A stretch of DNA of 64,000 bases from an uncultured Chthonomonadaceae bacterium (GCA_963817895.1 CAWFQB010000004.1:256001-320000); one strand, 5' to 3'. Positions 22,713 to 45,882 are shown, numbered from the stretch's first letter. Translations and numbers: made by a program. The notes: generated by a model from the sequence alone, not told the origin.

Positions 22713-23155
22713 TATGTTTTCTCCAAGTTGGCAAGGTCAGAGTGCCAAAGGTAGCTAGCTGATCTCTATAAGGGCCAGCAGGATGAGGCGAACACTACAT
22801 GTTTATCTCTCACCTATAATTTATCCTGCTGGAAAAAGTGAAATATTGTACTTTTTCCAAAAATTTCACATGACGGCGACGGTGAATAACTTCCACATTT
22901 TACATAGGGTAAATCAATGTTGAATCAGGCAAGCAGTTCCGACCATATTTCCACTTCCAGCAATCGTTCGCCTACCTGTCCTAAACAACAGCATAGTCCA
23001 CCAAACCAGCAAAAAATTCAGAAAAAAAGAGCCGCACAACGCAAAAAACACGAAACCTTCGCTCGACTCCACATGTCAAATGCAGTACACAAAAATCTAC
23101 ATATCCGGCAGGTACTATACAGAAGCCAGACACACAGGAGGGGAGGTGCAAGAAG

Positions 23156-23182
23156 ATGCCTGTCCACTCCCGTGCGCCCTGA
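23156..23182 (+). CDS. 8-codon mini-ORF MPVHSRAP* (copy 1)
   Basis: GGAGGTG SD 7 nt upstream; paralog at 45659 differs mostly at silent sites. Confidence 0.7.
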   Translation: MPVHSRAP

Positions 23183-23188
23183 CGCTCA

Positions 23189-23294
23189 CGAGGTCACGAC
23201 GCCTCTACCTAAAAACTTGACACAACGAGACAGAGTGCTGAAAGCGCTGCATTGCCAATATTTCGACAACGTCTCTACATACTCTCCTTCTTTT
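23189..23294 (+). ncRNA. Conserved structured 3' RNA segment (copy 1)
   Basis: 41 nt identical to 45722-45762; flanking stems. Confidence 0.55.
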
Positions 23295-26200
23295 GCCTGC
23301 GTCGGAACGTGACGTACAGCAGAGGGACGAAAAACAGCGTAAATAGGGTGGAGAAACTCAGGCCGCCGATGACGGCGACGGCGAGCGGTTTCTGCATTTC
23401 CGCGCCTGCGCCCAAGCCGAGCGCGAGGGGAACGAGGCCGAGAATGGCCGTTAAGGTTGTCATCAGAATGGGGCGAAGGCGGACTTCAGCGGCGTGGACG
23501 ACCGCTTCTTCCAGTCCCATGCCGTTCTGTTCGCCCTTTTGCGCCTGATCCAGCAGCAGAATTCCGTTCTTTACCACGATGCCGACCAGCATGATCGCGC
23601 CCATGAACGAACTGACGTTGAGCGCGGTATGTGTTGTCCACAATCCGAGCGTGACGCCGAACAGGGACAGAGGCATGACGAGCAGAATCACGAGCGGCGC
23701 GGTGAAGTTGCGGAACTGGAACAGCATCACGGCGAACACGAGCAGAATCGCCAATGCCAGCACTTGCATCAGGTTGCGGAACGATTCGGTCTGGCTTTGC
23801 GCCTGCCCTGCCAGCAGGTACGTGACGCCGGCCGGAAGCGTGGTTTGTTTCATCAGCGCGGACACGTCTTTGCATCGCGCTGCCCAGATCGCGGTTTTCC
23901 AGATCGCCCCGATACGGATACCACGCGCCGCTGATCTTCGCGGTTGATTTCCGTTGTGCCGGGAACGGTTTCGATCTGCCCAAGCGAAATCAGGGGCAGA
24001 TTGAAACCGCCGGGTGTGCGAATCGGCAACAGGGCCATTTGCGTTTTGTCCGCGCGGAACGCGAGGGGATAGCGAACCCGAACGCCGATCTGCCGGTCGC
24101 CTTGCAGCAATTGCGTGACCGTATCGCCGAACATCGCCGCGTTCGCCTGATCCGCAACCGCGTTCGTCGTCAGGCCAACCCGCCCCGCTTTCAAAGGATC
24201 AATGCGCGTTACCAGTTCCGGCCCGGTTTCCACCACGCCGGATTTCACGTCCACCATGCCCTTCACTTTGCCCAGTTTGTCGGCAAGGCTTTTGGCAATC
24301 GCCATCAACTTTGCCTGGTCTTCCCCGAACAGTTTGATTTCGATCGGACTCGGCGCGCCGGACAGGTCGCCAATCAAGTCCTGCAAGATTTGAATGAAAT
24401 CCACGTCAATGCCCGCCACATCCGACTTGATCTTGCCCCGCACGTCGTCAATCACGGCATCAATGCTCTTTTTGCGATCCGCTTTCAGCACCACCGCAAA
24501 GTCGCCGGTATTCTGCTCGTGTATTTCAAAGCCCAATCCCGCTCCCGTGCGCCGAGAATAGCCGGACACTTCGGGCGTCTCGTGGAGAATGGTTTCGATC
24601 TGCTTCAGCACACGGTCGCTCTCCGCCAGACTCGTGCCGGGTGGCAGCACATAATCCAGCACGAACGCGCCCTCATCCATTTCCGGCATAAGCCCGGTTT
24701 GCAGATGCCCGCCCATCCAGACCGTCGCGCCGATAATGGCAATCGCGCCAATCGGCAGCAGCCACTTGTGATGCAGGGTGAAGCGCAGCGCTTTTTCGTA
24801 AACGCGCAAAAACCGCTCGAACAGACGGCCATGTTCCTGCGCCCCCGCCCGAGTCTTCAGAAACGCCGCGCACAGGGTAGGACTGACAAGCAGGGCAAGC
24901 GCAAGCGAGACAAGCAGCGCAATCGTGAGAGTGACGGCAAGGGCGGTGAAAAACGCGCCGTACACGCCCGCCACAAGCACAAGCGGCAGAAACACGACAA
25001 CCGTTGTCAGCGTGGAAGAGATCATCGGCACGGCGATCTCCTGCGCCGCCAGTTGAACCGCGTCCTCCCGGCTTGTTCCCGCCGCCAGATGCCGAAACAC
25101 GTTCTCCACTACCACAATCGCGTCGTCAATCACCAATCCGATACCAACCGCTAACGCTCCCAGTGTCATTAAATTCAGCGTCAGCCCGGACAGCCGCATC
25201 AGCAGAAACGTGATGAGAACCGTTGCCGGGATAATGGCGGCGGTGACAAGGGTTGCCCGCAAATCGCCCAAAAACAGCAGCAGCACCACGACCGCCAGAA
25301 CCGCGCCGATGAGAACCGCGTCACGGACACTGTTGATAGCGTCGTGAATCAACACGGACTGGTCATAAAACGTGCCAACCTGTGTACCCGAAGGGAGCGT
25401 TTTGCGCAGGCCGTTGATCTCCTGCCGAACCCCCTCGACAACCGTCACCGTATTGGCATCCGGCTGCCGCGAAATGTTGAGCAGAACGCTCTCCGCGCCG
25501 TCCGCCGTGATAACCGTTGTCGGGTCCTGCGTGGAGGGCGCAACCGTCGCCACCATATCTATGGTAATGGGAACGCCGCCCCGCTGCGTGATAACGATTT
25601 TATTGAGTTGGCTGGCATCTGTGATTTCGCCGGAAACGAGCGCCTGATACTGCTGATATTGCCGGTTGAGGACGCCGACGGAACGCACGACATTGGACTG
25701 CTGCAGCGCCTGTTCCACATCCAGCAGCGAAAGTTTATATGCGGCCAGTTTCTGCGGGTTGACCTGTACGGCCATTTCGGGGATGCGCCCGCCCTGCACA
25801 TTGACACGGGCCACGCCGGGTACGCGGGTCAATACAGGCTTGAGCGTGTACGTGGCGAAATTCCACAATTCGGTTTGCGACAGATGATTGGAACGCAGCG
25901 ACAGCCCCATAATCGGGAACACGGTCGGGTTCATGCGCTCGACGCGAACCTGCGTTTCCGGCGGCAGTTGCGAACGTACCTCATCCACTTTGCCGTTAAT
26001 AAGCTGCTGCGCGGTCAGCATGTCCGTTCCCCACGCCATGTCAACCGACATTTCGCTTGTGCCGCGCGTCGTATTGGAACGCAGGCGGGCCACGTTGGGA
26101 ACTGTAGAAATCGCCTCTTCCAGCGGGCGCGTGATACCGGCAACCATCATGCGGGCAGGCCGCTCGCCCGCATCCGCAATCAGCTTGACGCGGGGAAACG

Positions 26201-26321
26201 TCACATCGGGCAGAATGGAAACGGGAAACGAGCCGAGCAGCATCACGCCGATCAAGCACAAAACAACCGTGACAAACAGCACGGCCTTGATGTTATTGGT
26301 GGCGAAGCGGCTGAGGTTCAC
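23275..26321 (-). CDS. RND efflux permease (CzcA/AcrB family), frameshift near 23860-23900
   Basis: IGLVIDDAIVVVEN, RLRPILMTT, GIVVKNGI. Confidence 0.93.
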
Positions 26322-28072
26322 GGCTTGCCTCCTTTTGCGTCTGCCCCTGCGCTTTTGTCATCCGCTTTATCAGCGCTTTTACCCTTGTCATTGGCATCGC
26401 TCTTGTCCGCGCTTTTCTCGTCCGCTTTGTCCTCGGACTTTTTGCTTGCTGCGTCGGTTTTGTCGTCACCGCCCGTTTCCGCCGCTTTGGTTTTCGCGCC
26501 GTCCGTGAGTTCATAGTTGCCGACGCTGACGACCGGCTGACCGGCTTGCAGTCCACTGAGCAGGGCGACCATTTTGCCTCCGTTCACTTCGGGGCCAAGC
26601 GTGACCACATGAGCCTTTGCCGTGTCGTCTTTGGCAACCGTGTAAACAGTGGGCTTGCCGTCCTGCGTGACAACCGCGCTTTTGGGAACCACAATAGCGC
26701 GACTAATGCGGCGGAGGACAATATCCGCAGTGGCGAACGCGCCCACGCGCAGGCTACCGGGATTGGCGACCTCGATGCGAATGGATAACAAATTGGTTTG
26801 CGGGTCCACCTGCCCCACATTGAGAACGCGCCCCGCGAATGTTTTGCCGGGAACATCGGATGTAGCGACATGTGCCTCCATCCCCGCCTTCACCTTCAAG
26901 CCGTCCTCGGCAGGCAGATTGGCGACAAGATTCAGGCCGCGCGTGTTGGATATTTCTAAAATAGGCGTGGTCACATCCGCCATATCGCCCGCGTTGGCAT
27001 TGCGTTTGGTGATCGTGCCGTCAATGGGCGCGCGGATTTCGGCGTAACTGGCAGTTGCCTGCGCCGCCGCGTAATCGGCCTGCTTCTGGTTCACCATGTC
27101 CTGCATGGCCTGCGCGTCCGACTGCTTTACGCTCACGTTCAGGCGACTGCGCTCGGCCTGCTGCAAGGCGGCGCGCGCCTGCAAAATTCTGGCATCCCCA
27201 CTCTTTTGCGCCTGAACCAGCGCGTCACGGGCGGCGTCTACCCGTAATTGCGCGGCGCGTAGCTCTTCCGGTCGCGCTCCTGCCCGCACCAGACTGGACG
27301 CCTGCTGCGCGCTTGTCAGCCCGGAATTGGCGACGGCAAGCGCGGTTTGCGCGTCATCCAGTTGCCGTTTTGCCGAGATTCCCTTATCGAAGAGAAACTG
27401 TACCCGCGTCAATTCCGTTTGCGCCCGGTCACGGGTGGCCTGCGCCTGCGCAATCGTCTGCTCGGCCTGCGCGATTTCCTGCGGACGCGCCCCCGCCCGC
27501 GTTCGCGCCAGATCGGTTTGCGCCGATTCCAGCGCGTTTTGCGCCTGCCGAACGGTTGCTTCCCGGTCTAAATTGGCGGATTCCAGCGCAAGCCGCGCCG
27601 TTCGTACCGAGCCGGTTTGATCCACCTGCGCCGCGCCCGCCGCCAACCGCGCCGAACGCGCCTGCGCTGCCGAAGCGATGAGAGCGGCCTGTGCGCTCCG
27701 CGCCTGCGCCTGTTGTGGCCGGTTATCCACAACCGCCAATTTTTGCCCCATCGTCACATGCTGGCCTTCGCTGGCATACACCCCAAGCAGCCTTCCGGCA
27801 ACGGGGGCGGTCACGCGAACATTCGCGCCCTGTCCCGGCGAAAGCGTCCCCTGCGCTCCAACCGTGATTTCCACCGCTTGCACCGTAGGCGTCGCCATTT
27901 CAACCGTGACAGGCGCGGCGGTTTCGGCCTCCCCGCCCGCCGCTTCGCCACCCGCTGCCGCGTCTTTCTTGCCGCACCCGCTCAATACACAACCGCAGAG
28001 GACGCAGAAAAAAAGGAACCGCAAAGGACGCGAGGGAAGCAAAGTAGAGTTAAAAGAATTATATAAAATCAT
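26318..28072 (-). CDS. RND periplasmic adaptor (lipoprotein)
   Basis: LSGC lipobox, APVAG, long hairpin, IRAPIDG. Confidence 0.9.
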   Translation of the reverse strand: MILYNSFNSTLLPSRPLRFLFFCVLCGCVLSGCGKKDAAAGGEAAGGEAETAAPVTVEMATPTVQAVEITVGAQGTLSPGQGANVRVTAPVAGRLLGVYASEGQHVTMGQKLAVVDNRPQQAQARSAQAALIASAAQARSARLAAGAAQVDQTGSVRTARLALESANLDREATVRQAQNALESAQTDLARTRAGARPQEIAQAEQTIAQAQATRDRAQTELTRVQFLFDKGISAKRQLDDAQTALAVANSGLTSAQQASSLVRAGARPEELRAAQLRVDAARDALVQAQKSGDARILQARAALQQAERSRLNVSVKQSDAQAMQDMVNQKQADYAAAQATASYAEIRAPIDGTITKRNANAGDMADVTTPILEISNTRGLNLVANLPAEDGLKVKAGMEAHVATSDVPGKTFAGRVLNVGQVDPQTNLLSIRIEVANPGSLRVGAFATADIVLRRISRAIVVPKSAVVTQDGKPTVYTVAKDDTAKAHVVTLGPEVNGGKMVALLSGLQAGQPVVSVGNYELTDGAKTKAAETGGDDKTDAASKKSEDKADEKSADKSDANDKGKSADKADDKSAGADAKGGKP

Positions 28073-29475
28073 GGGAGTTGTCCACCTACGGCGCGTTGCA
28101 GCGCGGCGAGGGCAATGTTGTAATCCGCGAGGGCGCGGGTGTAATCGGTCTGTTCGGTACGATACACCTGCTGCGCGTCCAGAAGTTCCAGATAGGTCGT
28201 CGCGCCCTGATTGTAGCCGATTTGCGCCATGTTGAGCAGTTCGCGCGAGTTGTCCAATCGCCCGCCTCGAAATCCCTCTACTGTTAATCGCGCCTGCTGC
28301 AAATTGCGGTACGCGGTTTCTACTTCCAGAAGCGCGACGCGGCGGGCTTCGGCAATCACAGCCTCCTGCTCCGACACGGCGGCTTTGGCGCTGGCAGCGT
28401 CGGCGCGGTTGCGCCCGAAATCGTAAAGGGGGAACAGCAGGCCGGCGCGGAGAGTATTGCCGCCCTGCGTGGGATCAATGTTGCCATGCCGCGCTTCCAC
28501 AAACAAATCGGGCTGTGACGACGCCCGCGCCCCGTGCAGCAGGGCTTCGCGATTGGCGCGGGTTTGTAGCGCGGACTGCAAATCGGGGCGGCGGGCGAGG
28601 GCGAGTTGCTGCAAATCTTCCAGTTTATATGCGGCGGGAGTAAACGGCAGGGTGGGAGCAACCGCAAAATCCGAATTGCCCTCCATGCGGGTCAGGCTGC
28701 GGAGGGTGGCGAAACGGTTGGCGCGTTCGGTTTGGGCGGCGGCAACCGCTTGCTCCGCTCGACTCTGCTCGATGCGGCTGCGGACAACCTGTGTTCGGGC
28801 TACATCCCCGGCGGTAAACTGCAATTGCGCGGTTTCGGCAAATTTGCGGGCGTTGTCCAGCGCGTCCAGCGCGAGCTGCCGCGCCGCTTCGGAACGCTGC
28901 GCCTCATAATACGCGGACTGCACCGCAAACACAAGATCGTTCCGCGCCGCCTGCCGATCCAGCGTGACCGATTCGCGCTCCGCCCGCGCCGCAAGAACGC
29001 GCTGCCGCCGCTTATCGCCCAACTCGAACGATTGGGAAATCAGATAATCCTCGTCCGTGCCGCCCGTATTCTGTCCGACGTGCGCGGCGATACTCGCAAC
29101 CGGATTCAGCAGCCGACCCGCGCCCGTCAATCGCGCCCCCGCCCCGACCACGCGGGCATCGAACTGCTGCGTGGTGAAACTCCGTTGCTGCGCGAAGTTC
29201 AGCGCGTCCGTCAGCGCGAGCGTTTGGGTATTCGCAGACAGAGCAGGCGGTGTTTGACCCGTAGGAGTTTGCGCAGTCGGAGTGGCGGCAGGCGTTTGTA
29301 CGGGTGTTACTGGAGCGGGTTGAGGCGTGGTTTGCCCGAATACGGCTACACGCGACAAGCCACAGAACCCGATGATAGCGAATAAACAAGACGAACGCAC
29401 GATAGCGATTAGCCTTTCAGTCTTTTGTCTTGAACCATGATTAAGATGATTACCATGATTGAGGAGGCGAGTCAT
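28069..29475 (-). CDS. TolC/CzcC family outer membrane protein; start uncertain
   Basis: SQSFELGDKR, RPDLQ, LELLDAQ. Confidence 0.88.
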   Translation of the reverse strand: MTRLLNHGNHLNHGSRQKTERLIAIVRSSCLFAIIGFCGLSRVAVFGQTTPQPAPVTPVQTPAATPTAQTPTGQTPPALSANTQTLALTDALNFAQQRSFTTQQFDARVVGAGARLTGAGRLLNPVASIAAHVGQNTGGTDEDYLISQSFELGDKRRQRVLAARAERESVTLDRQAARNDLVFAVQSAYYEAQRSEAARQLALDALDNARKFAETAQLQFTAGDVARTQVVRSRIEQSRAEQAVAAAQTERANRFATLRSLTRMEGNSDFAVAPTLPFTPAAYKLEDLQQLALARRPDLQSALQTRANREALLHGARASSQPDLFVEARHGNIDPTQGGNTLRAGLLFPLYDFGRNRADAASAKAAVSEQEAVIAEARRVALLEVETAYRNLQQARLTVEGFRGGRLDNSRELLNMAQIGYNQGATTYLELLDAQQVYRTEQTDYTRALADYNIALAALQRAVGGQLP

Positions 29476-29561
29476 CGAAAACTCTTCTCATTAAAAAGAT
29501 CATTACTCAACAGGGGTCATGTTAATCATCGTAATCATGCCTAATCATGGTTCAAGACAAT
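29424..29561. repeat. Inverted 9-mer-type repeat pair (ttgtcttgaaccatgatt...aatcatggttcaagacaa)
   Basis: Second copy at 63409-63572. Confidence 0.8.
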
Positions 29562-29564
29562 CCG

Positions 29565-30632
29565 TTACTTCTTGCCCATACTCGGCTCAAATACCAGAAT
29601 TACGGCGGTGTTCGGTTCCATAGTGGGACGGCCCTGCTGACCGGCAGCCATCGGCTTGAATTTGGCGGTAATCAGGTAGATGCGGTGCGTTTTCGGGTCC
29701 AGAGTCATGGTGCGCGCGCCGGTTTGCGTGGGTACTGTGGCGGCAACCGAGAACTTGTTTTTGCTGTCCTCATGCACGAGGGTCATGGTTCCGTCCTGCC
29801 CGTTGGAACTGACGGCCAGCTTGAGCGTAGGATCGAACACGCTGGCATCCGGGCCGTTGCCAATAGCCGGCATGGCGACAACCTTGCCGCTGTCCGCGTC
29901 CACAACCGCCATTTTCTGATTGCCGCACACCGCGAACAGGCGGCGCGTGGCTTTGTCGAACGATAGGCCGGAAGGTTCTTCGCAGGGATCAATCTTCCAG
30001 TGCTGCATGGCCTTCATCTCTTTGGCGTCAATGGCGACGATCTCGTTTTTATCTTCGACATTGCAGTACACCATCCCTTTTTCATCGGTGACGGCGAATT
30101 CAGGCTTGCCGCCGACAGGAATGGTTGACAACACCTTGCCGGAACGGGCGTCCAGAACGGTCACATCGCTGCTGCTGCCGTTGAAAGTAAAGACGCGATG
30201 GGTGGCGGGATCGTACAGAATGGCGTCCGGGTTTTTGCCGACCGCAACGCGCTGCAATTCTTTGAGCGTCTTCAAATCGAAAATCGTGACGCTATTTTCG
30301 CGCCCGTTGCTGGTATAGCCCCGGTTGAGGGCGGGCGCGAGCGCGACGCCGTGAACGCCCGGAGTATTGGGAATATCGCCGACTACAGCGTCTTTTACGG
30401 TGTCAATCACCATAACATGCGTACCCCGCGTGACATAAAGACGATGCGCCGCGCTGTCTACGTTGAGATAGTCCCAGCCGCCCTCGCCGCCGATGGCGAT
30501 TTTGGAAATTTGATGGTAGGCGGGGGAGGCGGGTTCCGCCGCCTGCGAGGAGAGAGTGGAAAACCCTGTCAGCAACGCGGTAACGCCTGCGCTGCAAGCC
30601 AGAAGAGAAGCAAACCGTTGGAAACGTGACAT
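29565..30632 (-). CDS. YncE family beta-propeller, secreted
   Basis: GGEGGWDYL, GVHGVA, GARTMTLD. Confidence 0.9.
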   Translation of the reverse strand: MSRFQRFASLLACSAGVTALLTGFSTLSSQAAEPASPAYHQISKIAIGGEGGWDYLNVDSAAHRLYVTRGTHVMVIDTVKDAVVGDIPNTPGVHGVALAPALNRGYTSNGRENSVTIFDLKTLKELQRVAVGKNPDAILYDPATHRVFTFNGSSSDVTVLDARSGKVLSTIPVGGKPEFAVTDEKGMVYCNVEDKNEIVAIDAKEMKAMQHWKIDPCEEPSGLSFDKATRRLFAVCGNQKMAVVDADSGKVVAMPAIGNGPDASVFDPTLKLAVSSNGQDGTMTLVHEDSKNKFSVAATVPTQTGARTMTLDPKTHRIYLITAKFKPMAAGQQGRPTMEPNTAVILVFEPSMGKK

Positions 30633-30663
30633 AGAACAACCTTTCTTCAATACAAGGAGAAAT

Positions 30664-30697
30664 TTAGCCGCGAATACACGCGAATGAACGCGAATAA
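30664..30697. repeat. ttagccgcgaatacacgcgaatgaacgcgaata repeat
   Basis: Same at 43282-43313; variant at 16233-16265. Confidence 0.75.
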
Positions 30698-30707
30698 AGG
30701 ACATAGA

Positions 30708-32039
30708 TTATAAGACGGACATATCCGGCGGAAAAGAAACTGTTGCTGTTACCCACCCGGCGCTGCAAGCGAGAGACAACTGCCAGTCATTAGAAGCGGC
30801 GACGGCTTTGCAGATGGCTAACCCTAATCCGTTGCCGCCCGTTCGTAGATTGCGCGAAGCGTCCGGGCGGTAGAACGGCTCGAACCACTTTTCCGGCGTC
30901 CAATCTACGTTCGGGTCGCAGGAATTGGCGATTTCCAGCAGTGCCGCAGTGTCGTTCATCGTCAGTCGCAGATGAATTTGTCCGCCGAACGTGGCATACC
31001 GTACCGCATTTTCCAGCAGATTGCGAACCAAAATATCGGCATGGGTAGACGCGGCGGAAACAAGGGCCTCGTCCGCTATCTGAACATTGAATGTCAGGCC
31101 GTGCGCCTGCGCCTGTGACGCAAGCGCGCGCAGGGTTCGGGTACAGACTTCAGCCAGATCAACCGGCTCCTGAGTGGGCCGCGGATTGCCCTCCAACTGA
31201 TGCAGGCGCAACAGGTCGCGCGTCAGCGAGGTCAGCCGCCGGGTTTGGGTGTCCGCTTCCTGCACGACAGCATGGTACTCTTCGCGGGTACGTGGACGCT
31301 GCAGGGCCAATTCCAAATGCCCGGAAAGCGCCTGCAACGGGGTGCGAAGTTCGTGCGAGGCGGCGGCGTAAAAGCGTCCCCGCGATTGAATGGTTTCCTG
31401 TTGGCGCGTCAGCAGATCGTTCAGGGTTTGAACCAGTTCCCGCACTTCCGCGTCCTGCGAGGGCGACTTTAGTTGAATTTGCTCTTCACTCCCCACGATA
31501 ACTCGCGCCTGCTGCGACAGTTTGCCGATGGGCGACAGGGTTCTTCCCACCAGTACCCACGCTCCCAATGTGGCGAGCAGGCCGGTGGCAAAACTGAAAA
31601 TCGCCAGTGTCCGCGCCTGACGATCTAATGCGCGCTGCGTATGCGTCCACGGCAGGCCGATGACCACTTTATACGCGCCGGTGGGAACCGCCAGAGTACG
31701 CCACTCCGACGCCCGCGCGCTGCCCGGCAGGGCTTGCGCAAGTTGAGACGTTGAAGGCGAGACTTCCACCACACTGCCCTGCGGATTCAGCAACATCAGC
31801 GAAACATGATTGTCGCCCAAATCGCTTTCCACTTCGCGCAGTTCCACCAGATTGAGCGCGGGCGCGTCGGCGGGCAGTTCATGCCCCACCTGCGTGGCCG
31901 CATTACGCAAAAGCGCGTCCGCGCTGTTTTCCGTCTGCTGCTGCGCATAGCGAACCATCAGCAGGCACGACGCCAGCATCAGCGCGAAAATGCACAGCGC
32001 GAATTGCAATGTCAACCGGGCGCGAATGGAACCGAGCAT
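30708..32039 (-). CDS. Sensor histidine kinase
   Basis: ASHELRTPL, NLLENAVRY, GNGLGLAI; two TM segments. Confidence 0.93.
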   Translation of the reverse strand: MLGSIRARLTLQFALCIFALMLASCLLMVRYAQQQTENSADALLRNAATQVGHELPADAPALNLVELREVESDLGDNHVSLMLLNPQGSVVEVSPSTSQLAQALPGSARASEWRTLAVPTGAYKVVIGLPWTHTQRALDRQARTLAIFSFATGLLATLGAWVLVGRTLSPIGKLSQQARVIVGSEEQIQLKSPSQDAEVRELVQTLNDLLTRQQETIQSRGRFYAAASHELRTPLQALSGHLELALQRPRTREEYHAVVQEADTQTRRLTSLTRDLLRLHQLEGNPRPTQEPVDLAEVCTRTLRALASQAQAHGLTFNVQIADEALVSAASTHADILVRNLLENAVRYATFGGQIHLRLTMNDTAALLEIANSCDPNVDWTPEKWFEPFYRPDASRNLRTGGNGLGLAICKAVAASNDWQLSLACSAGWVTATVSFPPDMSVL

Positions 32040-32056
32040 GAGAAAATCCTGTGGGG

Positions 32057-32133
32057 AAGATACGAGATAGGAGATACGAGATACAAGGCACAAGCAATCC
32101 TACTCTTATCTCGTATCTCCTATCTCGTATCTT
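32057..32133. repeat. Inverted tandem repeat pair (agatacg / cgtatct)
   Basis: Overlaps the response regulator stop codon. Confidence 0.85.
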
Positions 32134-35243: not shown

Positions 35244-35341
35244 GTAGATGGGTAGAAAAGCCCATTTTGAAAGTTGATACTGTCTTGTACAACTTTGAGT
35301 AGCGTGGTATTTCTACCATCTACCCATCTATTCATCTACCT
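35234..35341. repeat. Inverted tandem repeat pair (gtagatg / catctac)
   Basis: Between convergent genes; same family at 40565-40681. Confidence 0.8.
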
Positions 35342-36241: not shown

Positions 36242-36410
36242 AAGGGCAATAGCAATAGCGCAATTAGAAGTTTTGGTCCTACGATCAGGCGCAATTTCCG
36301 GGTGTTGAAAACACCCGGAATTCCAAACCGGATTTGCGTTGACCTGTAGTTGGTATGACGTTTCGACGCGCTACGGTTTGTATCCTTCTGGATTACCGCG
36401 AGAAAATTGT

Positions 36411-37217: not shown

Positions 37218-37222
37218 GGTAA

Positions 37223-39850
37223 TTGACCACAACAAATTTCGATAAACAATCTTCGGCCCGTTGCTATACGGGGGAACAGTTGCGCGCGGTCGCTATGCCG
37301 CTTGGCGGCATTGGAACCGGAAGCGTAGCGCTGTGCGGCGACGGCAGTTTGCGGCAGTGGCAGCTCAATAACAACGTCAATCATCTGGCGTATGTGCCGC
37401 ACAGCTTCTTTGCGGTTCAGGCGCAGCGGGAGGGGCAGGCCGCTGTCAGTCGCGTTCTGCAATCCGGCGCGCTTTATAAGGAAGACTTTGCGCCGGTTCC
37501 ATCCGTCAACGATTACATCATTCCTGACGAGTGCAAACGTCTGCTGGAAACTCTTCCCGGCGTAGCGGCGACGGAGTTTCGGGGCGAGTATCCCCTTGCC
37601 AAAGTCACGTATCGGGATGCAGCGTTGCCCGTCGAGATTACCCTGACCGCGTATTCGCCGTTCTGCCCGCTGGATGCGGAAACGTCGGGACTGCCCGCCG
37701 TTGTCTTCCAATTTTCCGTCCACAATCCCGCCGAGCGTCCCGCAAACGCGCATATCGTCGCCACACTGCAAAACTTTGTCGGGTGGGACGGCATACAGAA
37801 CATTACGGGCGTGGAGTGCGCCAGCTATGGCGGCAACCTGAACCACGTCCTGCGGCTGCGGGGCCTGACGGCGATTGTGATGGAGAACCTGAAACTGCCG
37901 GCCAATCATCCGCAGAACGGTTCGCTGTGCCTTGTCGCGCTGAGTGAGACTGCCAACGCCTGCGCCGCGTGGAGCGATCCGCTAACGTTCTGGAACGATT
38001 TCACCCGCAACGCGCCCTCGCTGGCAAATGTCCCCACGTCCGCCCCTTCCCCGGATGGCAGAACCGTGAACGGCGGATTGTCCGTTCCCCTGCGGCTGGA
38101 ACCGGGCGAAACCAAAACCGTGACGTTTGTACTCTGCTGGCACTTCCCGAACCGCTATGTGAACTGGGGGCAGGGGTTCAGCGGCATCGAAGACCGCAAA
38201 AGCCTGTTCTGGCAGGGCAACGCCTACTGCAAGCGGTTCGGCGGGGCGGCAGCCGTTGCCGAGTACGTCCGCGACAACTTTGAACATCTGGACGCAATCA
38301 CGCGTCGTTTCCACGCTACCTTTTATGACAGCGCGCTGCCGTATGAGATTCTGGATGTAGTCGGTTCGCAAATGTCCATTATCCGTACTCCGACATGCCT
38401 GTGGACGGAAGACGGACGCTTTTTCGGGTTTGAAGGCTGCTGCGGCGCAAGCACAAACTGGCAGGCATCCGGCGGCTGCTGTCCTATGAATTGTACGCAC
38501 GTCTTCGCGTATGAGATGAGCTTGTCCGCGCTGTTTCCCGATCTGGAACGCGCCATGCGCGAAACGGAACTGTTCCACCAACTGCATCCGACCGGCTATC
38601 TGCCCCATCGCGTTACCCTGCCGCTGTACCTGCCGCGCCCGTGGGAACGGGTGATTGGCGGGCCGGAAAAGCCCGCGCTTGACGGCCTGTTGAGTCTGGT
38701 TTTGAAAACCTATCGGGAACATCGGCGCAATCCTGACCCGAAATGGCTGCTGCGCGCCTGGCCCAAAATCAAGCAGGCCATGCAGCATGTCATGACCGCC
38801 CATGATACCGAAGGCGACGGCGTGATACGCGGCGAACAGCCCAACACCTACGACATTTCCATTTTCGGCCCCAATACGTTTATCGGAACCCTGTATCTGG
38901 CCGCTCTGCGGGCTGCCGAAGCAATGGCAAAATTGCAGGGGGAGAACGAACTGGCGGAATCGTACCGCGAACGCTATGAAAAGGGCAGAACCGGATACGA
39001 CGACCTGCTGTGGAACGGCGAATACTGGATACAGATTTACGACCCGACTGCGAACCCGGAACAGAATTACGGCACAGGCTGCCACTCCGACCATTTGTTC
39101 GGGCAGTGGTGGGCGCACAATCTCGGATTAGGACACGTTTTACCACAGGAGCGGGTTCGGCAGGCCGCGCAAAGCATCGTCAAGTACAATTTCCGCGCGA
39201 ACTTTGTGGGGCATAAGCAGCAGCCCCGCGTGTACGCCTGCGACGATGAAGCCGGACTGCTGATCTGTTCATGGCCGCAGGGCGGACGCCCGCCCGTGCC
39301 GACGCTGTATTCCGATGAAATCTGGACGGGCATCGAGTACGAAGTGGCCGCCCTCTGTTTCTATGAGGGCATGACCGGGGAGGGATTGGCGATCTTACGC
39401 GCTGTCCGGCAACGCTACAACGGCGAACGGCGCAGTCCGTGGAACGATGTGGAGTGTGGCGACCACTACGCCCGCGCCCTGTCGAGTTGGGCATTGCTGG
39501 ACGCGGCCTGCGGTTATCAATATGACGCTTCGACAAACGCCCTGACTATTCAGCCGCGCATTATGGAAACTGAGTTCCGCGCGTTCTGCATCACGGCGAC
39601 AGGCTGGGGAACCGCTTCCATGAGCCGAACAGAAACAACACTGACCGCGCAATTGCGCGTCGCGTGGGGCGCAATGCAAATTGCCGTTTTGACTCTCCCC
39701 GCAACCAGCGCGACAGGCGTATCTGCGCAGCTAAATGGTTCAGCCGTTTTATGTGCCATTGCGCCGGATGGAGAGGGTACGCGATTGCAGTTCAATAGCG
39801 CTGTTGTCATTCCAACGGAGCAGGCATTGACGGTTGAATTGAGTTGGTGA
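37223..39850 (+). CDS. GH116 family glycoside hydrolase
   Basis: AMPLGGIGTG, GEYP, FEGC, QPNTYD, ECGDHYAR. Confidence 0.9.
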   Translation: MTTTNFDKQSSARCYTGEQLRAVAMPLGGIGTGSVALCGDGSLRQWQLNNNVNHLAYVPHSFFAVQAQREGQAAVSRVLQSGALYKEDFAPVPSVNDYIIPDECKRLLETLPGVAATEFRGEYPLAKVTYRDAALPVEITLTAYSPFCPLDAETSGLPAVVFQFSVHNPAERPANAHIVATLQNFVGWDGIQNITGVECASYGGNLNHVLRLRGLTAIVMENLKLPANHPQNGSLCLVALSETANACAAWSDPLTFWNDFTRNAPSLANVPTSAPSPDGRTVNGGLSVPLRLEPGETKTVTFVLCWHFPNRYVNWGQGFSGIEDRKSLFWQGNAYCKRFGGAAAVAEYVRDNFEHLDAITRRFHATFYDSALPYEILDVVGSQMSIIRTPTCLWTEDGRFFGFEGCCGASTNWQASGGCCPMNCTHVFAYEMSLSALFPDLERAMRETELFHQLHPTGYLPHRVTLPLYLPRPWERVIGGPEKPALDGLLSLVLKTYREHRRNPDPKWLLRAWPKIKQAMQHVMTAHDTEGDGVIRGEQPNTYDISIFGPNTFIGTLYLAALRAAEAMAKLQGENELAESYRERYEKGRTGYDDLLWNGEYWIQIYDPTANPEQNYGTGCHSDHLFGQWWAHNLGLGHVLPQERVRQAAQSIVKYNFRANFVGHKQQPRVYACDDEAGLLICSWPQGGRPPVPTLYSDEIWTGIEYEVAALCFYEGMTGEGLAILRAVRQRYNGERRSPWNDVECGDHYARALSSWALLDAACGYQYDASTNALTIQPRIMETEFRAFCITATGWGTASMSRTETTLTAQLRVAWGAMQIAVLTLPATSATGVSAQLNGSAVLCAIAPDGEGTRLQFNSAVVIPTEQALTVELSW

Positions 39851-40128
39851 CAATGCTCGCTTCGTAAGGACACAGGCCTGAGGCGTGTTCTCCTGATAAA
39901 ATTATGACGGATTAGTCCTAAAATGAGGAACCTTGCGCGGTATTCGGTGGTACTATATCATAGGCTTAGATAACTTTAGTGTGGTACGCGCAAGGCTGAA
40001 AGCGGCAGCGAAGAAAATCCACAGGCGGTGAAACAATGCGCGGCTGCGATGCGTATACCCTTCACTGCATTATGGATTCCTGTTGCGCGATCCCCGCATA
40101 GTGACAAGAGGGGAGGGTGGGACAAAGA

Positions 40129-40569
40129 ATGGCAAGACGAGAGTATAATCCGCTTGATGTGTTCCTGCTGCTGGATTCCGACATTGGCCGTATGCCGGTA
40201 AATGCGCAGCGGGCGGTGCAATTTCAGCCTGCGATTGACATGTACGAGACCGCAGCCGCCCTGGTCGTGGAGATGGAACTGGCGGGCATTGTGCCGGAGC
40301 GTCTGAGCATCACCCTGTCGGCGGATGATCGCATTCTCAGCGTCACGGGCGAACGGCGCGAACCGCAGGCCGAACAGCGGGAACGGACGCGCTGTTACCA
40401 TCTGGAAATTTTCTTCGGGCAGTTTGAACGGCAGATCGTCTTGCCCTCCACGGTCGCCTTCGACCGCGACAACATTACCGCCCATTACCGCGATGGCTTT
40501 CTCATCATCGCCCTGCCCAAACGCGCCGAACCCCGTCATGAGAAGCGGGTGATTGAGATACAGAAGTAG
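40129..40569 (+). CDS. Hsp20 small heat shock protein
   Basis: PAIDMYET, GQFERQI.LP, AHYRDGFL. Confidence 0.9.
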   Translation: MARREYNPLDVFLLLDSDIGRMPVNAQRAVQFQPAIDMYETAAALVVEMELAGIVPERLSITLSADDRILSVTGERREPQAEQRERTRCYHLEIFFGQFERQIVLPSTVAFDRDNITAHYRDGFLIIALPKRAEPRHEKRVIEIQK

Positions 40570-40693
40570 ATGGGTAGATAGGTAGATAGTAGATAGGTAG
40601 ACAATGCCGCATCTTAAAATCTTTTGCCTTATAGAAAGTAGTGAGTAGGATGGCTACCTGTCTACCATCTACCTATCTACCTCTGGAGCCAAC

Positions 40694-43273
40694 ATGGACC
40701 CGATAAATTTAGCGAACATATTAGACGAAATAGACAACCAATCGGATGCGCCGGACGCGATAGAGATAAACGGCGACAGCGATTCGGAAATGAAACAGAA
40801 CATTCCCGACGAAATCAATCTGCTTCCCCTGCGAGAAGTGGTGATGTTCCCGGTCGTGGTCGCGCCGCTTGGCGTGGGGCGGGAAAACAGCATCAAGCTG
40901 GTCAATGAGAGCGTGGTGGGCGGCAACCGCCTGATCGCCGTCGCCTGCATGAAAGACCCGCAGATCGAAAACCCGACGCTGGACGACGTGTATAAAATCG
41001 GCAGCGTGGTGGCGATACGCATGATGGCGCAGGTTCCCGAAGGGATTCGCCTGATTGTGCAGGGCATACAGCGGTTTGAAATTTTGGAAGCCGTACAGAC
41101 GACGCCCTATTTGCGCGTGAAAATTCGACCGATTGAGGAGCCGGAGATTGCGGAAGAGGATCGGCTGGAAATCGAGGCGTTGCGCCGACAGATCAGCCAG
41201 ATGTTCACCCGTATCGTACAGTTGTCGCCCGACCTGCCGGACGAGATGCAGAACGTGTCCAGCAATGTGCAGGACGCGGGTACGCTGACGGACATCATCG
41301 CGCAGCAGATGCCCCGCCTGACGTTTGAGGAGCGGCAGGAGATACTGGAACTTGTAGAGATCAAGCCTCGCATGACCCGCCTGATGGAACTGCTGGGACG
41401 CGAAGTACAGGTGCTGGAATTGGGCAACCGCTTGCAGTCCGAAGTGGCGCAGGAGTTGGGCAAAACGCAGCGCGACTACTATCTGCGCGAACAGATTCGC
41501 CAGATTCAGAAGGAATTGGGTGAGGGCGACGACCGGACGCAGGAGATTGACGAACTGCGCGAAAAGATCGCCGCAGCGGGCATGACCGAAGAGGCGCGCA
41601 AGGAAGCTGACCGCGAACTCGACCGGTTGGGCCGCATGAATCCCGCCGCGCCCGAATACAACGTCACGCGCACCTATCTGGACTGGATGGTGCAGATGCC
41701 CTGGACGACGGCCAGTGAGGACAATCTGGACATTGCCGCCGTCAAGGAGATTCTGGACGCCGACCACTACGGCCTGGAAAAGATCAAAGACCGTATTCTG
41801 GAATACCTGTCGGTGCGCAAGTTCAAGGCGGACGGTACGGCGCGGCAGCCCATTCTGTGCTTCTCCGGCCCTCCCGGCGTGGGCAAAACCAGTCTGGGCA
41901 AATCCGTCGCCAAAGCGATGGGGCGCAAGTTCGTGCGTATGTCGCTGGGCGGCGTTCGGGACGAGGCCGAAATTCGGGGACACCGGCGTACGTACATCGG
42001 CGCACTCCCCGGCCAGTTCATACAGGGAATCAAGCGGGCGGAAACCAATAACCCGGTCTTTCTGCTGGACGAGATTGACAAGGTGCAGGCCGATTTCCGG
42101 GGCGACCCATCGGGAGCCTTGCTGGAAGCCCTCGACCCGGAGCAGAACAACTCGTTCCGCGACCACTATCTGGACGTGCCGTTCGACCTGAGCAAAGTGC
42201 TGTTTATCACGACGGCGAACGTGCTGGATACCATTCTGCCGCCCCTGCGCGACCGCATGGAGATCATCGAACTGGCGGGCTATACGGAAGAGGAAAAAAT
42301 CGCCATTGCCGAAAAGCACCTGATACCCAAACAGGCGGCGGAACACGGCATTGAAGAGAGAATCACGTTCACGCCGCAGGCCGTGCAGTTGATAGTGCGC
42401 GGGTATACGAAAGAGGCGGGCGTTCGCAGTCTGGAACGGGAAATCGCGACCGTGTGCCGCAAAGCCACGCGAGCGTTCGCTGAAGGCAAGTTCGAGACGC
42501 TGGACGTGACGGATGCTGTTGTGCAGGAGTATCTGGGCGCGCCCCGCTTCGAGCAGGAGGAAGCCATTGAGCGCGTAGAGCATACGGGTGTGGCGACCGG
42601 ATTGGTGTGGACGCCGATGGGCGGCGACATCATCTTCATCGAAGCGACGGCTATGCCAAGCCCGTCCAATCGTCCGTCAAGCCTGACGATTACGGGGCAG
42701 TTGGGGGATGTGATGCGCGAGTCGGCGCAGGCCGCGCTCTCGTATGTCCGCGCCCACGCCGTGGAAATCGGCGCGCCCGCAGACTTCTACGAGAAGCACG
42801 ACATACACATCCATGTTCCGGCAGGCGCGATCCCGAAAGACGGGCCGAGCGCGGGCGTGACGATGACAACCGCGCTGGCATCTCTGTTCAGCGGGCGACA
42901 CGCCAAACCGTTGTTAGCCATGACGGGCGAAGTCACGCTATCGGGCAAAGTGCTGCCGATTGGCGGTGTGAAGGAGAAAGCATTGGGGGCGCGTCGGGCG
43001 GGCATCAAGACTATTCTTGTGCCGGAACGCAACCGCAAGGACGTGATGGAAGACCTGCCCGAAGAGGTGCGCAAGGATCTCGACATCCACTTCATGTCCG
43101 AAGTAAAAGACGTGCTGGCACTCGCGCTGGAGCCAAAAGCGGGCGCGGCAGTGGGCGAAAACCCGGAGGGCAGCAAGCCGCCCACTCCGCCGAAAAAAGG
43201 CAACACGCGCCGCGCCCCTGCCGTGCCAAAGGTAGTTCCCGAAATGCCCGGCGCAGGTTCGCCACTGCATTAG
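40694..43273 (+). CDS. lon: Lon protease
   Basis: GPPGVGKTS, HRRTYIGA, PKDGPSAG. Confidence 0.97.
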   Translation: MDPINLANILDEIDNQSDAPDAIEINGDSDSEMKQNIPDEINLLPLREVVMFPVVVAPLGVGRENSIKLVNESVVGGNRLIAVACMKDPQIENPTLDDVYKIGSVVAIRMMAQVPEGIRLIVQGIQRFEILEAVQTTPYLRVKIRPIEEPEIAEEDRLEIEALRRQISQMFTRIVQLSPDLPDEMQNVSSNVQDAGTLTDIIAQQMPRLTFEERQEILELVEIKPRMTRLMELLGREVQVLELGNRLQSEVAQELGKTQRDYYLREQIRQIQKELGEGDDRTQEIDELREKIAAAGMTEEARKEADRELDRLGRMNPAAPEYNVTRTYLDWMVQMPWTTASEDNLDIAAVKEILDADHYGLEKIKDRILEYLSVRKFKADGTARQPILCFSGPPGVGKTSLGKSVAKAMGRKFVRMSLGGVRDEAEIRGHRRTYIGALPGQFIQGIKRAETNNPVFLLDEIDKVQADFRGDPSGALLEALDPEQNNSFRDHYLDVPFDLSKVLFITTANVLDTILPPLRDRMEIIELAGYTEEEKIAIAEKHLIPKQAAEHGIEERITFTPQAVQLIVRGYTKEAGVRSLEREIATVCRKATRAFAEGKFETLDVTDAVVQEYLGAPRFEQEEAIERVEHTGVATGLVWTPMGGDIIFIEATAMPSPSNRPSSLTITGQLGDVMRESAQAALSYVRAHAVEIGAPADFYEKHDIHIHVPAGAIPKDGPSAGVTMTTALASLFSGRHAKPLLAMTGEVTLSGKVLPIGGVKEKALGARRAGIKTILVPERNRKDVMEDLPEEVRKDLDIHFMSEVKDVLALALEPKAGAAVGENPEGSKPPTPPKKGNTRRAPAVPKVVPEMPGAGSPLH

Positions 43274-43569
43274 GAGAGACGTTAGCCGCGAATACACGCG
43301 AATGAACGCGAATAGGCTGTCCGTTTTGCCCCTCTTTTCAACTTGGAAAAGAGGGGTTTTTCTCTTTGTGCGCTACGTTCCTGCATGAACGAGAAAAAGC
43401 ATCATTGTACGTGGGAAAGTGTATTGACGGGCTGCAACGTGTCGTGTTATACTAACTTCACCACCAACCGCTACACTCTGAAACTACAATATTCGCAGGC
43501 ATGTTGGTGTGTTCTATCGCATATTTACGACAGAATTCTACGTTGGGGTAGGTTCTAACGTGGTGGGTT

Positions 43570-43917
43570 TTGGAGGACACGATGGATGAAGCTATAAGAA
43601 AATTAGCCGCTATAGGTTTGCCCGCAGTTATATTGTTGATTGCTATGGCGACGACAGGGCTTGCTGGAGCGGCTGCGATAACAGCCGCACTAGCCATGCT
43701 CGGGCCTGGCGGAATGCTTGGGGGCATTCTCCTTCTCGGTATCATCGGTATAGCGGCTGATGTACTAGCAAAGTACGGAATTGACAAGGCTCTAACAATG
43801 ATTTACGAGACGCGCAAAGAAAAAGGAGAAGCAGTAGAAGCACTGTGCAAAGAGGTTAAAAAACTGCCTATTTCCACAGACCTCAAACGCAAACTTACGG
43901 ATGTGATTAAAGGTTAA
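43570..43917 (+). CDS. Small glycine-zipper membrane protein, low GC; ATG start likely 43582
   Basis: TGLAGAAAITAALAMLGPGGMLGG; SD ggagg. Confidence 0.7.
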   Translation: MEDTMDEAIRKLAAIGLPAVILLIAMATTGLAGAAAITAALAMLGPGGMLGGILLLGIIGIAADVLAKYGIDKALTMIYETRKEKGEAVEALCKEVKKLPISTDLKRKLTDVIKG

Positions 43918-44115
43918 TCCTCCTTTTATCGATCTGACTGAATCGAAATTATGCTAAAATATATCAAATGTAAATTTATATAATAATATTAAATTATATA
44001 AATAATTTTTTAAATAAATAGAACAACTGAATCCTAGTTCAACTAAGTACACTGGAGTTGTTGATGAATTCGAAGTCAAGTTACATTTTTACGAAACGTT
44101 GAGCGGTTAGACAAA

Positions 44116-44730
44116 ATGAATTTACTGAACAACCTAAGTACGGCTCAATGGTTGGTTGCGGCAAAAACTTTCGGCAACAACCATGCTACTCTCATTGGTC
44201 TTATGGTCAATTGGTGGATTACTGCCGCCTCTGAAACGCATTGGGTTTTAGAGAGTGGCCCCTCGTTTGGTTATCGGCCAAATGGTGAAGGCGGTGGACT
44301 TTGTGACGCTTTATTGTGTGAAGGCAACAGCGTACTTGGAGTGCTTGAGGTGGAAGGTACACGCGGCAAGTATACTGCTGAGAAGATTGGCTATTTTTTC
44401 GCGGCTGAACTAGAACACTATACAACACTAAAATTTGCTATACTTTTGTTATACTCCTACAGCCCGACAGGAAAAGGAGTAAGCAGAACTATGCAGCCTG
44501 CGCGTAACCCCGAAACATTCGATGAAGTATGTCGTGTGTCTGCGTTGTATCCAGAAAAGTCAATAGTCGTCATTACAATTGACAAAATTTATGAACGTCC
44601 TACCGAAGGCATCCGCAAGCGTAGTGAATACTATTTCAGTAAACCTAGTGTAATAACTGGTTACCTCTTCCAGCAAGGTCAAGAAGTGGACTCCCGTGTG
44701 CTATACGACATGCAAAGTAGAGCAGCCTAA
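44116..44730 (+). CDS. Hypothetical protein, possible PD-(D/E)xK-like fold
   Basis: 204 aa low-GC ORF; CDALL...LEVE. Confidence 0.6.
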   Translation: MNLLNNLSTAQWLVAAKTFGNNHATLIGLMVNWWITAASETHWVLESGPSFGYRPNGEGGGLCDALLCEGNSVLGVLEVEGTRGKYTAEKIGYFFAAELEHYTTLKFAILLLYSYSPTGKGVSRTMQPARNPETFDEVCRVSALYPEKSIVVITIDKIYERPTEGIRKRSEYYFSKPSVITGYLFQQGQEVDSRVLYDMQSRAA

Positions 44731-44817
44731 CCCTCATCTAGCACTTGGTATTCCATCAAGGTAGAATGGCAGGTACATAGTAAGGGTTCTGCTTACTGAA
44801 CGCTGCAAAGGAACGGT

Positions 44818-45219
44818 ATGACGACGCTTTCGATAAAGACAAAAGTGACGGTAGACGACTTTGTTGAGGCGGCGGAGCAACTCCCAAACGCCGAATTGGA
44901 ACAACTGGCCCACCGCCTGCTGCACATTCAGGCGCGTCGGAAAGCCCCGCATCTGTCTCAGCGAGAAGCGGAACTTCTTGAAGGGATTGCGCAATCCGGC
45001 ACATTTCCTAAACAGGCCAGATACCACTACCTGAACAAAGAGTTAGAACACCGTCTCCTGACATACGACGAGCAAAACGAATTGCGTGAACTTATCGTGC
45101 TGTCCGAATCCCATACTGCTCAACGTCTTGCCCTGCTTGTCGAACTCTCGCAACTACGCTAAGTTCCCCTTCCTTCCCTGATGAAACAACTCCAAATCAA
45201 GGCTCCCGGCGTTATATAA
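44818..45219 (+). pseudogene. Antitoxin-like helical protein with an in-frame TAA at 45160
   Basis: ARRKAPHLSQREAELL...RLALLVELSQLR*VPLPSLMKQLQI. Confidence 0.6.
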
Positions 45220-45658
45220 ATATGTGTCGAAGGACTCCGCTCTGGCTGGTATCTATTCTCTATGCTGTTAATGCTGTTCCGCTTTACAGTTGCTTCTCCC
45301 CGCAAGGGAGAAGGCTGATTTGCGCATCCGAACGCGTTGGTTATAGGTTCGCTTCAGGCGTAGGACTTGCTTGTTGATTCCTCCATTCCCTGTTCAATGG
45401 GCGGCTAAACAGGAAACAGAGGCAACCAATGGAAAATCTACACGCCTGAACAAACCCCATCATCAGCGCACTCAACTCCCAATTAAGCCTTCTCCCTAGC
45501 AGGGAGAAGGTGGGCGAAGCCCGGATGAGGGTAGAAACCCCCAATTATTTTCAAAAAACTTCTTGGAGATACTTCTAAAACAGTGGACCAATGTTAATAT
45601 ACAGGGTGCGTAAAAACTGAATACCGCCCCCAGTAACAAGGAAGGGAGGTGCAAAAAG

Positions 45659-45685
45659 ATGCCGGTTCACATCCGAGCGCCTTAA
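45659..45685 (+). CDS. 8-codon mini-ORF MPVHIRAP* (copy 2)
   Basis: GGAGGTG SD 7 nt upstream; paralog of 23156-23182. Confidence 0.7.
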   Translation: MPVHIRAP

Positions 45686-45692
45686 CCATTAC

Positions 45693-45800
45693 AGAGGCCA
45701 TGAACGTCTCTTCTTAAAAATTTGACACAACGAGACAGAGTGCTGAAAGCGCTGCATTGCCACTATTTCGACGCTGTCTCTACATATTGCCCTCTTTTTC
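45693..45800 (+). ncRNA. Conserved structured 3' RNA segment (copy 2)
   Basis: gagacag/ctgtctc stem, agtgct-gaa-agcgct hairpin. Confidence 0.55.
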
Positions 45801-45882
45801 CATTTAGAGGCGCTGGCCCTGTTGCAGGGTACACTAAAACATTGTGGTTGGGCACTGCTATGAAATCACGAAATGAGACGAT

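Follow-up and report, generated by a model that had tools for sequence, protein, structure and literature searches.

What kind of gene is complete after eight codons? The question is raised by a 64,000-nucleotide stretch of DNA from an uncultured Chthonomonadaceae bacterium (GCA_963817895.1, CAWFQB010000004.1:256001–320000; hereafter the window, with positions counted from its first letter), in which a preliminary description had noticed two open reading frames (ORFs) for nearly the same octapeptide and had proposed a two-copy, stand-alone arrest-peptide system. Reading the plus strand confirmed both ORFs: ATG CCT GTC CAC TCC CGT GCG CCC TGA at 23156–23182 (copy 1, MPVHSRAP-stop) and ATG CCG GTT CAC ATC CGA GCG CCT TAA at 45659–45685 (copy 2, MPVHIRAP-stop). 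They are separated by four silent codon differences, one residue change (Ser/Ile) and a TGA/TAA stop swap, and the base after the stop is C in both. Each ATG is preceded at a distance of 7 nt by the Shine-Dalgarno (SD) sequence GGAGGTG (23142–23148 and 45645–45651), and a 41-mer, TTGACA...TTGCCA, is identical between the two copies. Comparison of these copies with their relatives in three genomes gives good support to a stand-alone, translated and structured small gene, the mini-gene unit.

The count of two was not borne out. In the window's own genome (G000; 7.48 Mb in 14 contigs), copies were found at 47 places by blastn, at 50 by a regular expression on the 3′ motif, and at 47 by a covariance model, so that the window contains two of 47–50. 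The covariance model also detected at least 80 copies in a sister species (G002) and 13 in a third species (G001), and it drew a blank in a further 39 genomes from the family and a further 150 from the phylum Armatimonadota. No blastn match was obtained in 38 of 40 relatives, nor any match in pattern scans of JGI metagenome contigs and viral contigs. A DNA-pattern scan of one genome per species returned at least 76 loci, all but one of them in two Chthonomonadaceae metagenome-assembled genomes (MAGs), the only form in which the host organisms are represented. Across the genomes and contigs searched, the family was found only in what appears to be one genus of uncultured soil Armatimonadota. 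The window gave no Rfam match at gathering score, and only chance-level matches around copy 1; the published literature that was searched, with subscription journals outside the coverage, contained no description of the family. The odd locus out (L080) lies on contig CAVQNP010000007.1, binned as Solirubrobacteraceae, and carries a single unit of the MLCLLPLPP-stop type that lacks an SD and adjoins the start of an opposite-strand reading frame, penicillin-binding-protein-like as judged by eye from its translation. Its flanks matched none of the three Chthonomonadaceae genomes, and it could be a case of mis-binning, a fourth lineage or a transfer.

We compiled 114 distinct copies from the three genomes, 101 of which had an SD, an ATG, a Pro-stop and the downstream hairpin and could be scored; the 13 set aside comprised five without a nearby ATG, four without a hairpin matching the regular expression, two without a Pro-stop, and two without an SD word. 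The first ATG after the SD was in frame with the Pro-stop in 98 of the 101, where chance would give one third. The sense parts of the in-frame copies measured 24 nt (n = 53), 27 nt (n = 41), 30 nt (n = 1), 33 nt (n = 2) and 48 nt (n = 1), i.e., mostly 8–9 codons and up to 16 in the sister species. Variation at the end of the ORF followed the codon: over 100 copies, the entropies at the three positions were 0.22, 0.28 and 1.23 bits for the Arg codon, 1.14, 0 and 0.33 bits for the middle codon ([T/C/G]CG), and 0.16, 0 and 1.29 bits for the Pro codon. The base after the stop was C in 87 of 100 copies, and among 103 stop codons there were 77 TGA, 25 TAA and one TAG. As a genome background, 5392 long ORFs of the window's genome were used, of which 0.8% end in RxP-stop, 7.9% have a C-terminal Pro, and 25% use TAG. 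The pattern first noticed in two copies is therefore real, much stronger than those two could reveal, and far beyond chance, since 98 of 101 frames are kept against an expected one third and RxP-stop closes only 0.8% of long ORFs.

The emphasis on a RAP-stop motif held only in part: the Pro-stop is kept, whereas RAP itself is a minority ending. The 103 peptide ends are RSP (65), RPP (23), RAP (6), RQP (1), LPP (2), HPP (2) and others (4). In the third species, a divergent and, as we see it, older subfamily carries a nine-codon ORF, M-x-x-L-(L/I)-(P/T)-L-P-P-stop, with synonymous Leu and Pro changes; because this subfamily ends in LPP-stop, the universal feature of the peptide is x-Pro-stop rather than RAP specifically.

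An ortholog of copy 1 in the sister species, which adjoins the same RND gene, shows what is retained at a single locus. The SD (7/7 positions), the ATG (3/3), codons 5–8 with the stop (14/15), the hairpin (14/16) and the 3′ stem-loop (41/49) were kept, whereas codons 2–4 (4/9, with no indel), the 5′ untranslated region (UTR; 24/60) and the tail (10/41 columns) had diverged. Codon periodicity, frame maintenance and this pattern of divergence all support the coding constraint that had been claimed for the peptide, and translation of the mini-ORF is, by the same comparisons, well supported.

What follows the ORF is equally orderly. Behind the SD, GGAGG(T/C)G, come about 7 nt, the ATG, the short ORF, 7 nt, a hairpin of 5 bp (GAGGT-CACGAC-GCCTC), some 20 nt of A/C-rich linker, a stem of two helices (P1, GAGACA/TGTCTC; P2, GCTGGAA/TTTCGAC) with a loop of about 17 nt, and TACATA with a pyrimidine-rich tail; the spacer between stop and hairpin is 7 nt in 99 of 103 copies. 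In copy 1, the hairpin lies at 23190–23205, 7 nt past the stop, and the stem-loop at 23227–23275, with P1 formed by 23227–31 and 23271–75, P2 by 23237–43 and 23261–67, and the loop GCGCTGCATTGCCAATA at 23244–60. Copy 2 has the hairpin GAGGC-CATGAAC-GTCTC at 45694–45710, 8 nt past the stop, and its stem-loop at 45732–45780 (P1, GAGACAG/CTGTCTC; P2, GCTGAAA/TTTCGAC; loop 45749–45765). The loop, AGCGCTG(C/T)ATTGCCA..., is invariant across the three species, and the helices around it vary: divergent copies of the third species have the compensatory hairpins GTGG/CCAC and TCGGC/GCCGA, the P1 variants GAGAAG/CTTCTC, GAGAACG/CGTTCTC and GAGAAAC/GTTTCTC, and the P2 variant GGCGGGA/TTCCGCC.

Covariation was counted on a 28-sequence MAFFT alignment. 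Paired cells made up 88%, and cells changed on both sides numbered 26 against 9.9 in shuffled alignments. The covariation score was 0.231 against 0.157 ± 0.011 in the shuffles, none of 500 of which reached 0.231, a test that overstates significance, as the rows are related paralogs from three genomes; controls with the pairing slid out of register scored at most 0.112. RNAalifold run on the closely related copies alone gave weak structures and no covariation, there being almost no sequence variation among them, and the structural support was obtained only once the divergent copies of the third species were added. A conserved SD/anti-SD switch was considered and is not claimed: the predicted partners of the SD were inconsistent (ORF, 3′ arm of the hairpin, 3′ domain or tail), and two copies of the third species have a hairpin whose 5′ arm does not resemble an SD.

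The product could instead be a protein, either a signal or precursor peptide or a longer chain made by a +1 frameshift or readthrough at CCC-TGA-C. In 69 of 101 copies, the 3′ domain can be read through in the +1 frame without meeting a stop, and copy 1 lies inside such a frame, a 131-codon ORF on the plus strand (22917–23312). That ORF matches no Pfam family and is most likely spurious, the +1 frame is closed in the other 32 copies, indels in the linker are not multiples of three, the loop lacks the third-position variation seen in the mini-ORF, and the N-terminal residues of the peptide are unconstrained. We rejected a hidden long ORF reached by frameshift or readthrough on the first two of these grounds and regard a protein product in general as most improbable. 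A reading of the UGA and hairpin as a selenocysteine insertion (SECIS-like) signal was likewise rejected, because TAA accounts for 25 of 103 stops and there is no coding sequence beyond.

The surroundings of the copies argue that the unit serves no particular neighbor. Of the 50 copies in the window's genome, 26 have their nearest downstream gene on the same strand and 24 a convergent one, with no relation among these genes; because of this heterogeneity and random orientation, we consider the unit a stand-alone gene, and the view that it is not an ordinary leader is upheld. Both the orientation and the content of the downstream genes rule out a leader of one fixed gene. Copy 1 itself, as had been noted, runs into the 3′ end of a convergent gene, here identified as AcrB-type RND, whose last codons are overlapped by the TACATAC and pyrimidine-rich tail of the unit (23276–23296). 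A cis-acting role for whatever lies nearby, as leader, attenuator or repeat-borne outward promoter, would draw on the 26 same-strand cases and on the promoter-bearing miniature transposable elements with inverted repeats (MITEs) described in the available part of a review (PMC10969869); it is very unlikely given the 24 copies that face a convergent gene, copy 1 among them, the unrelated downstream genes, and a 3′ part in which no sigma70-type promoter was found. The RND gene (23275–26321, minus strand) is split into two overlapping ORFs joined near 23853–23865, of 822 aa (profile positions 4–820) and 196 aa (profile positions 834–1021), through either a frameshift or a MAG assembly error.

Upstream of most copies, an A-rich stretch is followed by GAA(A/C)C(C/T)T-N13–17-(C/T)GTCTA. 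A strict pattern, GAA[AC]C[CTA][TC]-N13–17-[CT]GTCTA, occurred at 32 sites in the genome, and 16 of these sites have a family copy less than 400 nt downstream. A looser pattern was present at 29 of the 50 copies in the window's genome, and a similar box at 61 of 70 loci in the sister species and at 7 of 18 fetched loci (five of them fetched twice) in the third species. Copy 1 has an A-rich stretch at 23010–23051 that may act like an UP element, upstream of a putative promoter box, GAAACCTT-N15-GTCAAAT (23052–23081), which fits the looser pattern (GTCAAA); in many copies, the box comes after similar A-tracts that end in ...GCGAAAAAAC. Copy 2 is one of a subfamily (subfamily A) with a different upstream region, in which TTCTAAA (45573–45579) and TGTTAATAT (45592–45600) would form the promoter-like part (45573–45600). 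For comparison, the accessible portion of PMC2893595 gives sigma-E promoters as GGAACTT/TCAAA in E. coli and CGTCTAAH in Neisseria, with an AT-rich upstream element; the box upstream of the mini-genes is strongly enriched there, resembles a promoter of this sigma-E or extracytoplasmic function (ECF) class and is a candidate promoter.

The preliminary description had instead assigned the −10 role to a TA(C/A)TATACAG box. The box is present upstream of both copies, as TACTATACAG at 23113–23122 and TAATATACAG at 45595–45604, and is probably part of the transcribed 5′ UTR; a better promoter candidate, GAAACC-N15–17-GTCTAA, lies upstream. In copies of the third species, the GTCTAC-TATACAG motif comes after the ECF-like −10 box. 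A promoter scanner found no sigma70 promoter at either window copy.

A box of this type invites comparison with MicA, RybB and MicL, which are sigma-E-dependent small RNAs. The mini-gene unit has, like them, a conserved loop whose single strand could act as a seed, and a box that resembles a stress-sigma promoter, and it shares with dual-function small RNAs an ORF on the same molecule. It differs in being multi-copy, in lacking an Rfam match, and in lacking a terminator hairpin with a U-tail at the window copies; its mini-ORF is also much shorter than the ORFs of dual-function RNAs, with the last residues alone constrained. If the unit were an ordinary trans-acting stress RNA of the sigma-E type, the loop presented by the stem would be the seed and the mini-ORF incidental or merely stabilizing. 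The loop does contain CAU, and in a duplex scan of 6776 putative start regions it gave more strong matches than five shuffled loops, a weak control that ignores codon composition and the CAU/AUG match. Such an RNA would not explain why the mini-ORF keeps its frame, its Pro-stop and its fixed distance of 7 nt from the hairpin as tightly as the loop is kept; with the absence of a terminator, of an Rfam match and of long complements in the genome, this makes it an unlikely account.

The reading we prefer, plausible in our view and put forward tentatively, is that each copy is a self-contained small transcription unit, induced by stress, in which a slow-terminating mini-ORF is coupled to a 3′ stem-loop RNA. 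An ECF (sigma-E-like) promoter would drive the unit, and the very strong ribosome site would load the mini-ORF; a ribosome would terminate slowly at the Pro-stop and sit against the hairpin. Through this pause, translation would be linked to how the 3′ stem-loop is made, folds or survives: a paused polymerase could be released, or the C-rich, G-poor linker could be kept out of reach of Rho or nucleases, in the manner of leader-peptide attenuators and the tna operon. The invariant loop (AGCGCUGYAUUGCCA, about 17 nt) may have an RNA or a protein as its partner in trans. A stress-type promoter common to dozens of copies would turn on the whole family at once.

Several features of the ORF end are linked to slow termination: the C-terminal Pro, a penultimate Pro or Ser, an Arg mostly at −3, TGA or TAA as the stop, and C at +4, UGA-C being a weak stop signal. 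With the stop in the A site, a hairpin that starts 7 nt further on would presumably stand close to the point where mRNA enters the ribosome, at about +13 counted from the first base of the P site. Work by Hayes et al. in 2002 reportedly dealt with C-terminal Pro and SsrA tagging. In TnaC, according to the part of PMC11890864 available to us, Arg23, next to Pro24, helps to block accommodation of RF2. For R-A-P peptides, the corresponding portion of PMC10951233 describes an Arg that docks in the peptidyl-transferase center, tolerance of an Ala-to-Ser change, and a minimal RxPP that is enough for arrest.

The same features would also suit a translation brake or sensor, in which the shared stress promoter fires slow Pro-stop mini-ORFs that trap ribosomes, RF2 or peptidyl-tRNA-Pro, slow growth or report RF2/EF-P capacity, while the 3′ domain only stabilizes the RNA. 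The strong SD at near-optimal spacing, the Pro-stop end with TGA or TAA and +4 C, and the 50 to >80 copies with a promoter box common to most are what such a device would need, and overexpressed tnaC depletes tRNA-Pro and thereby inhibits growth (PMC11890864, in part). Generic Pro-stop pauses are short, and the invariant 17-nt loop with its compensatory helices is left unexplained, which makes a brake or sensor alone doubtful.

Comparison with characterized systems places the coupled unit near several of them and inside none. It resembles TnaC, the leader peptide of the tna operon whose termination arrest at Arg-Pro-UGA blocks Rho, in having a short ORF that nearly always ends in Pro-stop, with an Arg near the end in most copies, a stop readable by RF2, and a C-rich, G-poor stretch after the stop; in the proposed logic, too, what becomes of the downstream transcript depends on a ribosome waiting at the stop. 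TnaC, however, has 24 codons and the mini-ORF 8–9; the latter lacks Trp12/Asp16-type tunnel contacts and a known ligand, its N-terminal residues are unconstrained, it ends in R-x-P (L-P-P in one subfamily) rather than R-P, with the Arg at −3 instead of −2, and it is followed by a conserved stem-loop, not by an enzyme gene, in about 50 dispersed copies. With the RAPP/RAGP peptides (ApdA, ApdP and SecM) it has in common that the Arg and Pro codons are the constrained ones. Those arrest during elongation, the last Pro of R-A-P-P or R-A-G-P being decoded in the A site, and are long exported proteins encoded upstream of Sec/YidC genes, whereas the mini-ORFs have 8–16 codons and no fixed neighbor, and the stop follows R-x-P in 95 of 103 copies, with R-x-P-P in none. 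The bar minigenes of phage lambda, of two to three codons, cause peptidyl-tRNA drop-off in Pth-deficient hosts. The mini-ORF, too, is very short and follows a strong ribosome site, and at high expression it could sequester peptidyl-tRNA or ribosomes; unlike bar, the mini-gene unit conserves the end of its peptide and has a hairpin at a fixed place downstream as well as an RNA domain. In its proposed working it comes closest to an attenuator of the leader-peptide kind joined to a trans-acting RNA, or to a battery of minigenes, and we count it as a member of none of these classes.

A number of findings weigh against the coupled unit as we have drawn it. On the peptide side, 8–9 residues are far fewer than in known termination-arrest peptides, the Arg is replaced by Leu in one subfamily, and the TAA stops (25 of 103) can also be read by RF1. 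Because the peptide is short and its Arg exchangeable, sequence-specific arrest is not assured, and a generic slow Pro-stop alone may apply. On the RNA side, besides the overstated significance of the covariation, folding predicts that the SD is itself paired (mean probability 0.91), with a partner that differs from copy to copy, and no canonical terminator was found after the unit at either window copy. The invariant loop has no complement of 13 nt or more elsewhere in the genome, 12-mers occur at chance level, and neither the complement search nor the duplex scan yielded a target. As for the regulator, one of the 16 strict-pattern matches outside the family (contig C1, minus strand, 125781) is followed at a distance of 278 nt by an ECF sigma gene with Sigma70_r2 and r4_2 domains; this is weak evidence for an autoregulated sigma factor of the family, and that gene is at most a possible candidate.

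A bolder extension, which is speculative and which we think unlikely to hold in full, is a stress regulon made largely of one repeated gene. An ECF sigma factor would fire 50 to >100 slow-stop mini-genes, whose ribosomes would stall on (R/L)-x-Pro-UGA-C, up against the hairpin, and act as a brake or as a meter of RF2, EF-P or tRNA-Pro, while the stall would license the loop to act in trans; the whole would be transposon-amplified, with no downstream gene regulated.

One way in which copies spread is visible at one locus of the sister species (L123), where a 437-bp insertion corresponds to a precise empty site in the window's genome (contig C5, ~675051). The insertion ends in CAGAGCCGGCACATCTAAAATG ... 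TTTTTAGACCGCCTCTGCCCTG, with AAAGT flanking both sides, and the same ends bound a 1.27-kb insertion sequence (IS) in the window's genome whose transposase is of the ISAs1 family (Pfam DDE_Tnp_1_assoc and DDE_Tnp_1; NF033564, 402 bits). Among the 50 copies of the latter genome, both inverted repeats were recognized at three, one at 12, and none at 35. Copy 2 has the right terminal repeat, ATTTAGAGGCGCTGGCCCTG at 45802–45821 on the plus strand, and no left repeat was found for it; copy 1 has no repeat. Two further loci of presence in one of the two genomes and absence in the other lack repeats. The marks of a MITE were thus seen as IS-matching repeats in a subset of copies and as an empty site with target duplication in one case. 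Its cargo is the complete unit, promoter included, and because the full unit also exists outside the MITE and in the third species, we take the MITE to have amplified a gene that already existed; capture between ISAs1-type repeats in the 437-bp element would have raised the copy number in part.

Transposition of this kind could also mean that the family is a selfish repeat without host function, the likeness of its copies reflecting recent MITE bursts and not selection. The precise empty site, the ISAs1-type repeats at 15 of 50 copies and the matching IS resident in the genome are consistent with this. The 35 copies without a recognizable repeat nevertheless keep the ORF and the RNA parts, the unit is older than the split of the three species, conservation between orthologs is patchy and tracks the functional parts, and the changes are codon-periodic and compensatory; a purely selfish repeat is accordingly quite improbable.

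Both promoter-bearing MITEs and small RNAs derived from MITEs have been described, as the accessible part of PMC10969869 relates. The Correia and Coxiella QMITE elements treated there are similar in that a transcribed cargo is multiplied by a non-autonomous element whose ends are those of a resident IS, and the ISPpu9-borne Ssr9 RNA, as described in part of PMC12288879, is another case of a transposable element with transcribed cargo. The present cargo differs in being a complete gene, with promoter, mini-ORF and RNA, that appears to be under purifying selection and that also occurs outside the repeats, in 35 of 50 copies and in a sister species. Copies of the IS lie outside the window, near 226770 on contig C4 (minus strand) and near 136907 on contig C9 (plus strand), the latter with a diverged and apparently frameshifted C-terminal half. 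At a third locus, near 64764 on C9, two IS ends stand alone, about 120 bp apart.

Each known arrest or pausing peptide is a lone leader that belongs to one downstream gene; in the present family, such a design would be built into a stand-alone RNA gene, conserved in three species at 13 to >80 copies each and partly transposon-borne. If the pause is real, stalling could control or arm a non-coding RNA or throttle translation globally, and the unit would offer a minimal eight-residue model of termination pausing. The family would also be a clear-cut example of how a MITE can multiply an entire functional gene.

Minor sequence features were seen around the 5′ parts of some copies. A second repeat family, CCTTCTCCCTAGCAGGGAGAAGG...GGATGAGGGTAGAAAC, composed of a hairpin and a tail, lies at 45486–45537 of the window, about 110 nt upstream of copy 2, and recurs at the same distance ahead of several other subfamily-A copies. 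Just upstream of the SD, several copies carry the heptamer CAACTAT in variable tandem number (e.g., at locus L032 and at the copy on contig C6 of G000, anchor 424677), and GTTGAGAG...CTCTCAAC forms a hairpin; both are subfamily-specific features of the 5′ UTR.

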